Assembly: GCA_045837725.1 (NCBI GenBank)
Contig: JBEWZL010000253.1
Span: 1-64,000 of the forward strand
DNA length: 64,000 bases
Direction of reading: 5' to 3'
Source of the DNA: Vermamoeba vermiformis
Taxonomy: Eukaryota
Part shown: positions 25,076 through 59,468 of the stretch, one piece after another
Position numbering within the stretch: position 1 is the stretch's first letter
Layout of the letters: the number at the start of each line of letters is the position of its first letter
The notes under the pieces: generated by a model
The model's database searches: none
What the model was told of the DNA's origin: nothing
The model's input: the letters and a program-made list of their open reading frames with translations, nothing else
Made by a program: the position numbers and the translations under genes

Positions 25076-27492
25076 TCACTTTGACTTTTTAATACTATTC
25101 TTGGCATGTTCGTTATTGATCACGTGGTCCAAAAACAGCTCGTGAAGTGTCTGTTCTTTTGGGAGTGTGAAAAGTGATGCTGCTTTAGAGACCACTTCAT
25201 CGTACTGTTTCGAATGATCTTTTAATTCAATAGCGTTAATATTGTACGAATAAATAGTAGGCGCCGAGCTTAGTTACCTCTTCGCCATATATAGGAAATT
25301 TGGAAAGTTTTAGCGGAGTTACTGATCACGCGATCCACTCGTCCAACACCGATGATTTTTCTCTTTTCTATAAGCATCAGTTTACCGCTATAGTTCTTTT
25401 CGAATTCACTTGGTTTGTATGGCTCTATGTCATAATGAATCAACGGCAATAAAATCGCTGTAACTTTTCTGTTTTGTTTTCTCGGAGGTCGTTCCGAACT
25501 TTTCGCTTGAAATTTCAATTTCATCTCCTTGACTTGCTGCTTATATTCCATCAGCTTCATTCTATACCCTTGCTTATTGTGCCTATATTCTTTTTTCTTC
25601 GGCTTCTCGACTTTGAACTTTCTAGTAGTTGTCTTTGCTGAAATTTCTCCATCTTCGTCCAGCTCTGGAAAAATCCACCATAAGATGCACGGAATACGAG
25701 ATGAGCCGTAGAATATATTATAGGTTTGATGCTGCACTAATCTATCGGGTTTCATAACGACAATTTGGGCTCGAAAAGCTATGGTACAATTCACCATAGG
25801 CGTTTCCGTCGGTTTGATTAAGTAGCTGCACTTGGGATATATATCATATAACGGGACATTCTTAATATTAATACCAATAATATCGCCTGAATAATCAATT
25901 TAAGTTGAGTTCAAACAAGATCCAGAAAATTTTTTACCTGGATAGGCTGTTTCAAGCGGCATGCAATATGATTCAATCGATTTAGCTAGAGTTCGAATTC
26001 CATCTGGATGAATGCTGATCGTACTGTTTGGAGTCAAAGTGCCACCTAAGTAAATGACAATGTAATTACTATTATTTCTCTAAACTGATTTTTTCAATAT
26101 TTTACAATTACGTACTGATGACGCGACCTTCAATAACAGTGCCTATGCCAGCGATCTTATCGGCGTTTGTGAGTTGAAGGCGCAAAGGGGCCTCACAAAG
26201 TTTTTTGTACGACGATGAGTCAAAGTTAGTTCGCAACTGATCGTCAAGAATGAGCTTTTTCAGTGAAGCACCGCTGAACCACTCGTACTTCGGTGTGATG
26301 TTTGCAGTGATGTTGGTGCCAGTTCGGACATTTATCGGAATAATTGTATAGCACATGCCAACTGTTTTGTTCAGCAACTTTGATATTTTGAGCTTTGCCT
26401 GATTGAAAGCTAATATATTTAAGCATTTCAGTGCTAGCACAACATCTATTGTTGAAAAATCTATACGCGAATTGTATCCGGTGTCAAAGTGTCATAAATT
26501 AGTTTGACACGTGTCAAGCAAAAAAACTTACCGTTACACAACCCGCTTGCTTCTTTGGCGGTCACATTTGACAAATCAATAGCGACGATGATATTACGAG
26601 CACTCATCATGAAACAACAGCCAAAGATCATTTCTTTAATATCTTCTGCGTACGCGTCGATTTCTTCCGGATCCACGATCAACAAACACAAATCCGCCTA
26701 AAAAACGAAATAATTGTACTCATTAATAGTTGAATTCATAAAAACGGACTGGGAAGACATAGATCTACAAAAGCAAAACGAGATCCGGATCAAGGTGCGT
26801 ACCTTAACTGCCAAAGTGTATAATCTCACTCGCAAATTGTTCGCTGTTGGTGCTTCAATCAATGAAACTTTTCTTTCTTTCGCGACAAGCGATGGAATAT
26901 GATTTTTGAAAGGTGTAATTTGCACAACGTTTTTCCTCGTACGACCGGTTGGATTTATTTCGGTCGTCGGCGCTTCACTGAAAAGCGTTGAAGATACGAC
27001 CGCAGATCCTATAACCTCCGTCATTAGTAAATTTGTATTTATTGAAAATTTAATTCTTACTTGAAACCGTCGTAGTTAACGAAATTGAATCTGGTAAATA
27101 AAAATTAGTAATAAAAACAATAATTAAAAAATATTTACTATATTTAGACGGAAGTGATAAGACTAGAACGCGGGAGTGGTCGCCACAAAGTCGGATCTTC
27201 TTTCGGTGCTCGAGAATATATTGGGCTAGTCCATGATACCGCTTATTTACTCGCACTAATTTATTTAAATCACGTCTTTCCAGATTATCGAGGATTTCTA
27301 CCAAGATCTAAACCAGAAAATTAATTTTTAAATTTGAACTGCAGTAGAAAAAATTAGATAAATAGAATATGGTTTTGTATTCTATAAACGTTAATAAACT
27401 GCTAGAAATCTTGTTATAGAGCAAATGTATACCTCGTTCGGGAGATCAACCAATAATGATAGTCTTCGGGGCACCTCTAATACTTTAAGCAT
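25076..27492 (-). CDS. F-box fused to degenerate eEF1A-like translation-factor body, copy 1
   Basis: LVDLPNE|ILVEILDNLERRDLNKLVRVNKRY (F-box), then [83 protein letters not shown] and [17 protein letters not shown], collinear with eEF1A domains I-III. Confidence 0.8.
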
Positions 27493-27685
27493 AGTCTTGA
27501 TTATGCTCTTTTGTTGTCATTAATAGCCAGCTTTAAAAAATAGGAATAAATTGCAACCGATCCCCACAAACCCAAAATCTCGCCGCTGTTGTTATTAACA
27601 CGACGCAAAAAACATTAAGTTGAGTACAAACATTAAAAATGTATTTACATATTAATATAAAACAATTAATGAGGTACAACAAAAG

Positions 27686-56682: not shown

Positions 56683-56903
56683 CCGCTTGACAAAGCAATA
56701 TCAGCCAGGTTCGAACCGGACCCGGTAATTTGATGACTTGCTGTTGGATTGGTGCTTTAAGTCAAAATAAATTGTTTTTTTCTTGTAGACCCGCGAGAAG
56801 TTCGGCAAGGAAAAATACTCCGTGCAATAAAGATTTACACTACTAAACCGAAGAAGATAACCACAAATGTGCATTTTAATTAGTTAATGCACGCATAATT
56901 GAC

Positions 56904-59468
56904 ATGGAAGAAGAGAATCGACAGCAGTTGTGGTTGACAGATCTGCCGAGCGAGGTAAATTTCCGTTTAATGTTAGAATAATTTTAAAAATTCCAGTTTA
57001 CGTCGTACAAAAACGAATTAAAGATATTATTTCATAAACGATTTAGCGTTTAATTTTTGGGACTGATGGCGAACTTTTTCAGATCTTGACATCAATCCTC
57101 GATAATCTGAATAGATTACAACTAAGTCAACTACTATTCATTGGTAAAGAGTTTTATTCCTTGGCCCAATATCTTCTTGAAAATAGAAAGAAGATCCGAC
57201 TTTGCGGCGATCATTCGCGAGTATTAGTATTGGCACTTCCCTATGCCTTAAGTAATTAAATATTATTAATAATCATAAATTATTATTTAAATACTAACTG
57301 CATACTTCAGACACTCTGGCGCTCAATTCGCAAAAATCAACGAACGTGGAGTGCAGCTCTCGTACGTTCACAATAAAATTAATAATGACGTTACTAAATT
57401 TGGCAATATATTATTTAGGCACGGGACTGCTCGTTTCTACTTTTTTCAGTGAACAGCCTACACTAGAAATTGAACCCAAATACGGAAATTTCATCAAAGC
57501 ACGCGAACGCGTCACAAGTCGGACCGTAGAAAATGGCGCCAAACAAACCAGAATTACATTGATTGAACCACCAATGGCCAGCCAGTATCGATTGCACTTG
57601 TACACTTTGGCCACGACTGTAAGATCCGGATCCAAATTTTACATCCGAATAACAATTGTTTTGCATTCGAGTTTTACGTCTTCAAGGTCGAATTTACTCT
57701 TTAAAGTGTTTTAACGACATATAATATTAGGCGGATATATGCGTCTGCTGGTTGTGGATCCGGAAGAAATTGATGCGTACGCAGAAGACATCAAAGAAAT
57801 GATCTTTGGCTGTTGTTTCATGATGAGTGCTCGTAATATCATCGTGGCTATTGATTTGTCAGATATGATACGCCACTGTTTAAGAGACATGGTAAGCGGA
57901 CTTTTTCACCGATGAGTTCATTATGACATATGACATTGTAAAATTGGTATAATATTTATAATGACAGCTACGAGTATTCCAAGACTATTCGCAATCTTTG
58001 GATGCAGTGTCAGCGTCACTCGTAATCTTTCACGTTAAATATAAAAATCGACTGTTGTAGCTAACTCTGACATCGCTTATTTCCGTAGAGTTTCAATCAG
58101 GCCAAAGCTCAAAATATCAGATCTGTTGGACTTAACAGAACATTGCCCATCGCTGTTTGACCGAACAGTCGGCACGTGCTACACAATTATTCCGATAAAT
58201 GCCCGAACTGGCACCAACATCACTGCAAACATCACACCAAAGTACGAGTGGTTCACCGGTGCTTCACTGAAAAAGCTCATTCTTGACGATCAGTTGCGAA
58301 CAAATTTTGACGAATCAGCGTACAAAAAACTTTGCGAAGCTCCGTTAAAGCTTCAATTAACAAATATACACAAAATTCTCGGAATCGGTACTGTTATTGA
58401 AGGCCGAGTAATAAGTATGTACCAACAAATATCAAGTCAATTTGAACCTAATAATTTTAACAGGTGGCACTATACAGCGTGGAGATACAGTCGTTTTGCA
58501 TCCTTTGCAACAAACTAAAGTTTGGAGCGTCGAAACATATGGCCATCGAATAGAGATTGCAAAGCCAGGTAAACAAAAGTCCTTCCGTTGGCATTCTGTT
58601 AATATTAAGAAATCTTTGTTTAAGGCGATGTTGTTGGCGCAAATGTAAACAACGTTACAAAGAGGAATCACCCTGCAAAATTCACCTACGTAGCGAAGTA
58701 CCCCACGGTCATTTGCACAATTGCTTTTCGAGCTCAAATTGCGGTGATGAAGCCTGATCGATTTGCACAACGCCAAGTGTATAAAGTATTCTATGGCTCA
58801 GCGCGTATACCTTGTATGGTGTGGTGGATTTTTCCCACCGATGAAGTTCCAAAAAAGGCAAGAAAATTCAAACTGGAACGAACGAATTGGCCTGTCGAAC
58901 CAACGAACGAAAATAATCAGATCAACCGTGACGAGTATGAAAGGCTATTAAAACAATACCAACAAGAGTTAGAACAAGCAAGACAGCAATTTGCGAAGTT
59001 TCAAAAGGAGAGCGGATCTGGCTTTACACGACCTCCGAGAGATCAGCACAAAAAAGTGACAGCAATATTGTTGCCACTGATTCATTATGATATTGTACCA
59101 TACAAACCAAGTGAATTTGAAAAGAACTATGACGGCAAACTGATGATTATGGAAAAGAGAAAAATTCTCGGTGTTGGACGCGTGGATGGCGTGATATGTA
59201 ACCCCGAACGCACTTTTCATATTCAAGATCGTAAAGGTAATATATCATAAGCTTGGCGTCTACTATTTATTCCAAAAATTTTAACAAAATTGAATAATTA
59301 GACATCGAGTATCAGATTCGAGAAGTGATCAACAGAGCAGGGTCACTTTTCAAACTGCCACAAGAACAAAAACTTCTCGACCGGTTTTTAGCGCAAAAGC
59401 CAACTAAAGTACCGATTCATAAAGAAAAAGGCGAACTACGAATGCAACGAGAGTACTGGAAGTGGTAA
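56904..59468 (+). CDS. F-box fused to degenerate eEF1A-like body, copy 3
   Basis: LTDLPSE|ILTSILDNLNRLQL (F-box); [95 protein letters not shown]; ends EYWKW*. Confidence 0.75.

Follow-up and report, generated by a model that had tools for sequence, protein, structure and literature searches.

A family of F-box proteins with an eEF1A-like body lacking nucleotide-binding motifs in Vermamoeba vermiformis: candidate SCF substrate receptors

Introduction

F-box proteins set which proteins are destroyed by SCF (Skp1-cullin-F-box) ubiquitin ligases, and the substrate-binding domain of the classical members is usually of the WD40, leucine-rich-repeat (LRR) or Kelch type. To our knowledge, the recognition domains of F-box proteins come from a short list of folds, and a whole elongation factor is not among them. 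Bodies of the eEF1A family are also found in other roles, as in Ski7, which has no classical GTPase switch and acts as an adaptor. In this work, we describe three genes (A, B and C) in a stretch of 64,000 nucleotides of Vermamoeba vermiformis DNA (assembly GCA_045837725.1, contig JBEWZL010000253.1, positions 1 to 64,000 of the forward strand; hereafter the window), each of which encodes an N-terminal F-box directly before a body collinear with domains I-III of eEF1A.

Like the classical SCF receptors (FBXW, FBXL and Kelch-type), the window family has an N-terminal F-box followed by a large interaction module, and it is multi-copy, tandem and subject to birth and death; unlike them, its putative recognition module has an EF-Tu-family fold. 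An excerpt of Burroughs and Aravind (2019; PMC6514570) describes an F-box joined to VLRF-1, a Vms1-like release factor, in Naegleria and some ciliates. This fusion, too, is specific to protists and brings an F-box together with a domain of translation or ribosome quality control; the partner has the aeRF1 superfamily fold and is not an EF-Tu-family GTPase. Ski7/HBS1 and divergent EF-1α are comparable in that eEF1A-family bodies have come off the GTPase switch and taken adaptor or, as proposed, auxiliary roles; an excerpt of PMC3699394 proposes that divergent EF-1α genes retain auxiliary roles only. No published description of an F-box-eEF1A fusion was found in the literature searched. What is new here is the combination of an F-box with a GTP-dead eEF1A, while F-box receptors and eEF1A-derived pseudo-GTPases are known kinds of protein. 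The architecture is solid, and it is unusual.

Results

Three loci and their gene models

With one exon of gene C as query, a relative of 623 amino acids (P0001) was found in the protein database, and the full-length P0001 matched the window by tblastn at exactly three loci (E 8e-108, 7e-154 and 1e-92). Exon models were made with a custom protein-to-genome spliced aligner using P0001 and two further relatives, P0002 and P0003, as queries, refined with read and contig evidence, and then translated. The original prediction, made from the letters of the window, had placed the family at 25076-27492 (-), 54164-56682 (+) and 56904-59468 (+), and both tblastn and the exon models, which start and stop at the same coordinates, agree with it. 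The peptides it had quoted were also located, two in B and one in C; the final G of one of the B peptides spans the contig-confirmed splice junction 55578/55631. The gene models are as follows.

Gene A, 25076..27492 (-): 8 exons, 601 codons, frame open throughout; from spliced alignment and translation
Gene A exons (-): 27492-27433, 27307-27139, 27059-26803, 26697-26532, 26409-26116, 26045-25938, 25886-25278, 25218-25076
Gene A exon 2, 27139..27307 (-): F-box helices 1-3, then G-domain strand 1 and a degenerate P-loop (HRKKIRLCGDHSRVLVLSLPS)
Gene B, 54164..56682 (+): 9 exons, 617 codons including one internal stop; from spliced alignment and contig joints
Gene B exons (+): 54164-54211, 54369-54522, 54600-54650, 54703-54899, 54978-55143, 55252-55578, 55631-55741, 55800-56378, 56462-56682
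Gene C, 56904..59468 (+): 9 exons; from spliced alignment and contig joints
Gene C exons (+): 56904-56954, 57083-57251, 57311-57361, 57419-57670 (canonical donor 57618), 57731-57891, 58108-58414, 58464-58568, 58625-59236, 59302-59468

Genes B and C lie head-to-tail, with 221 bases between the end of B and the start of C. The window has about 38% G+C and short GT..AG introns, and all introns of gene A are of this kind. The boundary between exons 2 and 3 of gene A is alignment-based only and varies with the query (27139/27059 vs 27068/27015).

The F-box is joined to the eEF1A-like body

In each of the three genes, exon 2 is a single open frame that runs from F-box helices 1-3 straight into HRKKIR(L/V)CGDHSRV(L/I)VLS, a segment that lines up in eEF1A with strand 1 and the position of the P-loop. 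Because the F-box helices and strand 1 are encoded by exon 2 alone, the fusion is independent of predicted splicing. The equivalent segment of P0001 (residues 61-68) was modeled as a strand, and the structural match to archaeal EF1A (aEF1A) begins at residue 59. Exon 2 of gene A taken by itself matched Pfam F-box-like with an E value of 0.0028.

Splicing of the F-box exons to the exons that follow was seen as well. Six of the 16 predicted introns of B and C were confirmed, with GT..AG joints, by intron-less contigs of the sequencing runs X1 and X2. Those of gene B are introns 1, 5 and 6 (54211/54369, with the joint at 54209/54367 and the cut at +2; 55143/55252; 55578/55631), covered by contigs of both runs, and those of gene C are introns 1, 2 and 3 (56954/57083, with the joint at 56952/57081 and the cut at +2; 57251/57311; 57361/57419), covered by X1 contigs. 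In C, the joints connect exon 2, which carries the F-box, with exons 3 and 4 in turn, and among the X1 and X2 contigs no joint contradicts the final models of B and C. Spliced forms thus occur in these related samples, if the runs are RNA as guessed. Furthermore, the whole architecture is found in uninterrupted form in the relatives: P0001 is a 623-aa open reading frame (ORF) on a contig of 2046 bases, P0002 is a 618-aa ORF of a Trinity transcript marked complete, and P0003 is likewise a full-length ORF. The join of F-box exons to eEF1A-like exons, on which the original prediction depended, is therefore supported by the single exon, the spliced contigs and the full-length ORFs; its claim of an F-box with all three eEF1A domains is backed in agreement by the alignment and the model of P0001.

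None of the six full-length sequences (A, B, C and P0001-P0003) has lost the F-box. P0002 passes the Pfam curated cut-offs (F-box-like 25.6 bits against 24.3; F-box 24.1 against 20.5), and P0001 stays under that for F-box-like (20.7 vs 24.3).

The body has the eEF1A fold and has lost the nucleotide-binding motifs

The motifs were aligned to a canonical eEF1A (P0004) obtained by search. G1 (GxxxxGK[ST]) is present in none of A, B, C or P0001-P0003, and the position of the P-loop GHVDSGKS reads …LSLPS…. At the G3 position (IIDAPGH), B and C have LIEPPMA and A has LIEAPTA, with IEPPIE and similar forms across P0001-P0003. The G4 position (NKMD) reads IDLS in A, B and C, and VDLH or IDMR also occur among the same relatives. 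The earlier statement that the nucleotide-binding motifs are lost thus stands for G1, G3 and G4 in all three copies, as does IDLS in all of them, with the correction that LIEPPMA applies to B and C only. Its further statement that (K)ERER near switch I survives in two copies was half right: the motif is exact in B (KERER), while C has KARER and A is without a remnant. In line with the motifs, neither the window exons nor P0001 matched Pfam GTP_EFTU (PF00009) at E ≤ 1, and P0002 did not match it at E ≤ 0.001.

The other domains can be recognized by sequence. P0002 matches Pfam GTP_EFTU_D2 with 35.7 bits (cut-off 30.3), the window exons give weak GTP-eEF1A_C matches (E 0.005-0.023), and the domain II motif K-I-x-G-I-G-T-V-x-x-G-R-V is preserved in the family. 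Domain III has a family-specific insertion of ~60-80 residues, which is K/E-rich and helical, and the proteins end in a conserved helical tail of ~60-70 residues. In a phmmer search against the Protein Data Bank, the best match was yeast eEF1A (1f60, 8e-19; query 136-416 to residues 86-369), followed by aEF1A (3e-14), SelB (4e-9), HBS1L (1e-5), eRF3 (3e-4) and GTPBP1 (3e-3), and a search with the family profile again put aEF1A and eEF1A on top. The window family differs from Ski7/HBS1 both in this much weaker match of HBS1L and eRF3 than of eEF1A, and in having an F-box in place of the exosome- or Ski-binding N-terminus. A protein-atlas search returned generic EF-Tu-family clusters only, at 0.78, which is under the trusted level.

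The fold was examined on P0001. Its AlphaFold2 model, built from an alignment of 66 rows, has a predicted local distance difference test score (pLDDT) of 78.7 and a predicted template modeling score (pTM) of 0.76. The fold match spans residues 59-553 of the model, and the F-box (1-58) and the tail (554-623) lie outside the fold searches. By Foldseek, the top match was human eEF1A (E 2.6e-26, template modeling score (TM) normalized to the target 0.70), and aEF1A was among the top matches. VIA alignment of residues 59-553 with residues 4-432 of 3wxm chain E (GTP-bound aEF1A of the Pelota complex) gave Z 31.0 with a root-mean-square deviation of 3.1 Å over 379 of 430 residues, and Z was ~30 against human eEF1A. 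The expected structural match to translational GTPases is thus very strong, and on this model it includes all three domains. The target TM was 0.66-0.75 for GTP-form or ribosome-bound chains and 0.39-0.43 for GDP-form chains; the higher values for the GTP-form chains indicate that the model is in the compact 'on' arrangement. The identity of the body to eEF1A/aEF1A in the structural alignment is only 18-21%, and the switch-I region is unconserved in the alignment and modeled at pLDDT below 50.

With sequence and model in agreement, the body appears to derive from eEF1A. It shares with eEF1A/aEF1A the collinear order of three domains from strand 1 to the end of domain III, and these proteins are its best match in both sequence and fold (Z 30-31). 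Unlike them, the window family lacks the P-loop, DxxG, NKxD and a Pfam GTP_EFTU match, and adds the F-box, the domain III insertion and the C-terminal tail. The proteins of this family are not plausibly elongation factors.

State of the three copies and selection

Gene A is the only copy without a defect. The frame of gene B is interrupted in domain II by a TAA at 55720-55722 (+) (…GIEVFRK-stop-LQTAKPG), and X1 and X2 contigs cross 55631-55741/2 without a joint, each with 5 differences from the window there. The TAA makes B a likely recent pseudogene, or else is a strain polymorphism or a sequence error. A change of genetic code was ruled out, as the standard code gives window ORFs as long as 545 aa; bypass by alternative splicing was ruled out by inspection of the sequence, as the sole nearby donor (exon end 55718) breaks the frame. 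In gene C, the problem region is 57619..57762 (+), where exon 5 has, after the acceptor 57731, 2 extra bases within its first 32 compared with B. The canonical donor 57618 leads to a frameshift, and an open frame requires exon 4 to continue as far as 57670, with ~17 residues more. No read or contig covers C over the bins 57629-57819.

The pairwise ratios of nonsynonymous to synonymous substitution (dN/dS) are 0.34 for A/B, 0.33 for A/C and 0.39 for B/C, with dS of 0.86-1.12. The F-box is the most constrained segment (0.16-0.23 over the first 80 alignment columns, A vs B and C), and the N-terminal half of the G domain, including the switch-I part, is the least conserved (0.67-0.82 in the same comparisons). 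There was no window with dN/dS above 1 among A, B and C. The introns have fallen to background identity, so that the copies must be old and have been retained under purifying selection.

The most conserved block of the family consists of exons 5 and 6 of B (54978-55143 and 55252-55578, with intron 5) and the matching exons of A and C. It carries …AIDLS and …PINxRTGTNIT…KYEWFSG…LDDQLRTNFDE…, and corresponds to the linker that leads into domain II together with the G4/G5 side of the G domain. The nucleotide identity among A, B and C is 79-86% in exons 5-6, compared with 52-71% in the other exons and 43-72% in introns, and dS in these exons is 0.21-0.71 vs 0.86-1.12 overall. Exons 5 and 6 are also the only places where RNA reads of runs X3 and X5 match, with 90-95% likeness. 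Gene conversion as the source of this low dS is unsupported, with intron 5, which lies between the two exons, at background identity; the low dS could reflect extreme constraint, short conversion limited to the exons or a signal at the nucleotide level.

At 55293-55325, B and C have an insertion of 11 residues (…DQTEHIAQSLFE…) that is absent from A and P0001-P0003. The X1 and X2 contigs skip exactly those 33 bases (joint 55292/55326, CA..AA, not an intron), which implies that they derive from a copy without the insertion.

Relatives and phylogeny

A HMMER search of 1.84 billion cluster representatives gave 991 proteins at E ≤ 0.001 and 14 at E ≤ 1e-30. Among 153 database proteins compared, 33, mostly exon-sized fragments, are closer to P0001 than to canonical eEF1A or to P0145 (described below), and among the 150 matches listed, 4 cover the F-box region. 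Two metagenome loci, L001 and L002 (~37-39% G+C), were found with the family alignment profile, whereas a search with P0001 alone found none. Both have open frames, and their exons 1 and 2 meet where those of the window genes do within the F-box (…LPNE/IL…); their spliced models carry the F-box, that of L001 from mid-motif. Scans for viral origin found no relatives among viral contigs.

A second group of F-box-eEF1A proteins is formed by P0145, the only named member of its clade (hypothetical protein QOT17_020551 of Balamuthia mandrillaris), together with P0154 and P0155. P0145 has an F-box of 29.4 bits, a GTP_EFTU match (E 1.9e-24) and an intact P-loop, and the clade passes GTP_EFTU with E values of 1e-24 to 1e-29. 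As in the window family, the F-box stands directly before strand 1 of the eEF1A-like body, and there are insertions in the domain II-III region. Unlike the window family, to which they are ~25% identical, these proteins keep GxxxxGK[ST]. Their annotation goes no further than hypothetical protein or 'elongation factor 1-alpha'.

A quick maximum-likelihood tree, which had no labeled eRF3, HBS1 or EFL rows, separates the two F-box clades with 100% support each; it does not settle their mutual position or their place among the subfamilies, and long branches were flagged. A tree with all F-box rows constrained together was not rejected and was slightly more likely than the free tree (approximately unbiased test p 0.535; log-likelihood difference +1.38). 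One ancient fusion followed by loss of the GTPase is possible.

The relatives of the window family are named 'translation elongation factor EF-1alpha' or 'hypothetical protein' in the database, and the first label is almost certainly wrong. Among the other database proteins outside the window, P0037, P0040, P0047 and P0051 are canonical eEF1A joined to a kinase, DUF1618, a PPR E-motif and a gag pre-integrase, respectively. All four have the look of merged gene models rather than of real fusions, which calls for caution in domain-architecture searches.

Discussion

We hypothesize that the A, B, C family consists of SCF substrate receptors in which a nucleotide-free eEF1A fold is the recognition module, and we give this function about an even chance. 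The same even chance is given to its evolutionary side, namely that this is a lineage-restricted F-box family in which a three-domain body derived from eEF1A has replaced the usual substrate domain and has lost GTP binding and hydrolysis. In such a receptor, the F-box would dock on Skp1 within the SCF ubiquitin ligase, and the nucleotide-free EF body would be a constitutive platform that presents a target for ubiquitination. The body is modeled in the compact shape by which GTP-bound EF-Tu/eEF1A holds aminoacyl-tRNA or tRNA-shaped proteins. Rather than a pathogen effector, the target may then be a ligand of the eEF1A fold, such as the factor-binding site of the ribosome, a protein that resembles tRNA, or proteins that are nascent or damaged. 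An auxiliary role of eEF1A in ubiquitin-dependent degradation is mentioned in the excerpt of PMC3699394, and together with the F-box-VLRF-1 fusion of the PMC6514570 excerpt it gives a modest lean toward a target linked to translation. The family would evolve by duplication and decay, with one copy intact, one with a premature stop and one with a frame problem.

Several observations weigh against this hypothesis. The fold was tested on P0001, a relative ~50% identical to the window proteins, and not on these proteins themselves, and the compact, closed conformation is a prediction that may reflect a bias of the method. The F-boxes of the window score below the Pfam curated cut-offs when exon 2 alone is scored (F-box 20.2 vs 20.5 bits for B, which is the best; F-box-like 17.8 vs 24.3 for A), in part because profile positions 1-7 sit on exon 1; furthermore, the tryptophan at the end of the F-box, present in the P0145 clade, is missing from the window family. 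Two of the three copies carry defects. X1 and X2 are RNA by guess only, and their contigs are 90-99% alike to the window; one contig joins a C-like piece to a B-like piece, so that, given this degree of likeness, some contigs come from other paralogues or strains. Raw RNA reads of runs X3 and X5 match conserved stretches only, at 90-95%, and give no sign that B or C themselves are expressed.

Two alternatives concern the family's working state. The F-box may bind Skp1 or another partner with no degradative SCF role, or may be vestigial on an EF body that moonlights in the cytoskeleton, in Ski7-like RNA surveillance or in a chaperone-like manner. The borderline F-box scores in the window clade are consistent with this, and so are the divergent EF-1α genes with proposed auxiliary roles only (PMC3699394, excerpt). 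However, the F-box is the segment under the strongest constraint among the paralogues, it is retained in A, B, C, P0001-P0003 and both metagenome loci, it stands at the same position in the independent P0145 clade, and HBS1/Ski7-type sequences match far worse than eEF1A, so we regard a non-degradative or vestigial F-box as unlikely. It could also be that the genes are old eEF1A duplicates that acquired an F-box exon and are drifting without function, as the stop in B, the 2-base frame problem in C and the loss of all GTP motifs would suggest. This is very unlikely, and for the family as a whole it is largely refuted: dN/dS is 0.33-0.39 over a dS of ~1, at least five further sequences (P0001, P0002, P0003, L001 and L002) keep full-length open frames at ~50% identity, 33 of the 153 compared proteins are closer to this family than to canonical eEF1A, and spliced transcripts are seen in the Trinity ORF of P0002 and, if the guess about these runs is right, in the X1 and X2 contigs.

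The original prediction had proposed an integrated decoy, in which the dead body mimics eEF1A, is bound by pathogen or viral proteins, and leads to their ubiquitination by SCF. Its second option, in which SCF would be steered to ribosomes or to partners of eEF1A, may still hold. F-box families in biotic conflict are often multi-copy, tandem and decaying, and the window family is itself multi-copy, tandemly duplicated, decaying and set among LRR and F-box-like genes. Balamuthia mandrillaris, the source of the wider group's sole named relative, is a free-living amoeba, and the peak of dN/dS in the N-terminal half of the G domain (A vs B and C) could be a trace of diversifying pressure. A faithful mimic of the surface targeted by effectors would nevertheless be expected to keep switch I, which holds the serine modified by glucosyltransferase effectors, and this region is unconserved and poorly modeled. 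In structural alignment, the body shows only 18-21% identity to eEF1A/aEF1A, its best-conserved surfaces are family-specific and not eEF1A-like, and no dN/dS window exceeds 1. The decoy was ranked below a generic receptor role because the body is far from eEF1A and is least conserved at switch I; as judged from sequence and model, it would be weakly disfavored, and we hold it to be quite unlikely.

If the proteins are working SCF receptors, they would physically couple the eEF1A fold to protein degradation. A broader proposal, which we consider rather unlikely at present, is that free-living protists have an unrecognized class of SCF receptors built on eEF1A, in two grades, one GTP-competent (the Balamuthia type) and one nucleotide-free and fixed 'on' (the window type). 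Through such a class, cullin-RING ubiquitination would be connected directly with the translation elongation machinery; its members might ubiquitinate ribosomes, tRNA-shaped factors or faulty nascent chains probed at the factor site of the ribosome. Alternatively, the conserved, remodeled G4/G5 pocket could be re-used to sense a new small ligand. The natural series from GTP-competent F-box-eEF1A through GTP-dead forms to decaying copies could reveal the route from a GTPase switch to a constitutive adaptor. The comparison also corrects the database labels of the relatives.

Neighboring genes in the window

Scans of the window for tRNA genes, Rfam families and tandem repeats gave no matches. The neighborhood of the F-box-eEF1A genes holds many LRR and F-box-like genes, and the family is flanked by LRR genes at 27686-28957 (-), 30403-31779 (-) and 60163-60945 (-). 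The first of these has strong LRR_1, LRR_4 and LRR_8 matches, a transmembrane-like stretch and a plant-type LRR N-cap motif. At 32337-33974 (+), an open frame of 545 aa has an F-box-like start (…LPDVPPELHEIIVSSL…) followed by leucine-rich repeats with weak Pfam LRR matches; it is probably an F-box/LRR gene. The open frame of 482 aa at 20350-21798 (-) is without a Pfam match and has an F-box-like motif (…LQDIIKYISRF…LVCKNWCLAI…) near its C-terminal end; it may belong to a larger gene, as an exon whose frame continues across an intron. Elsewhere in the window, an exon of a class I (Trp/Tyr-type) aminoacyl-tRNA synthetase lies at 14223-14675 (-) (Pfam E 6.7e-5), with protein-atlas neighbors that are all eukaryotic, and a DUF4139 domain exon lies at 12266-12910 (-) (E 3.5e-22).

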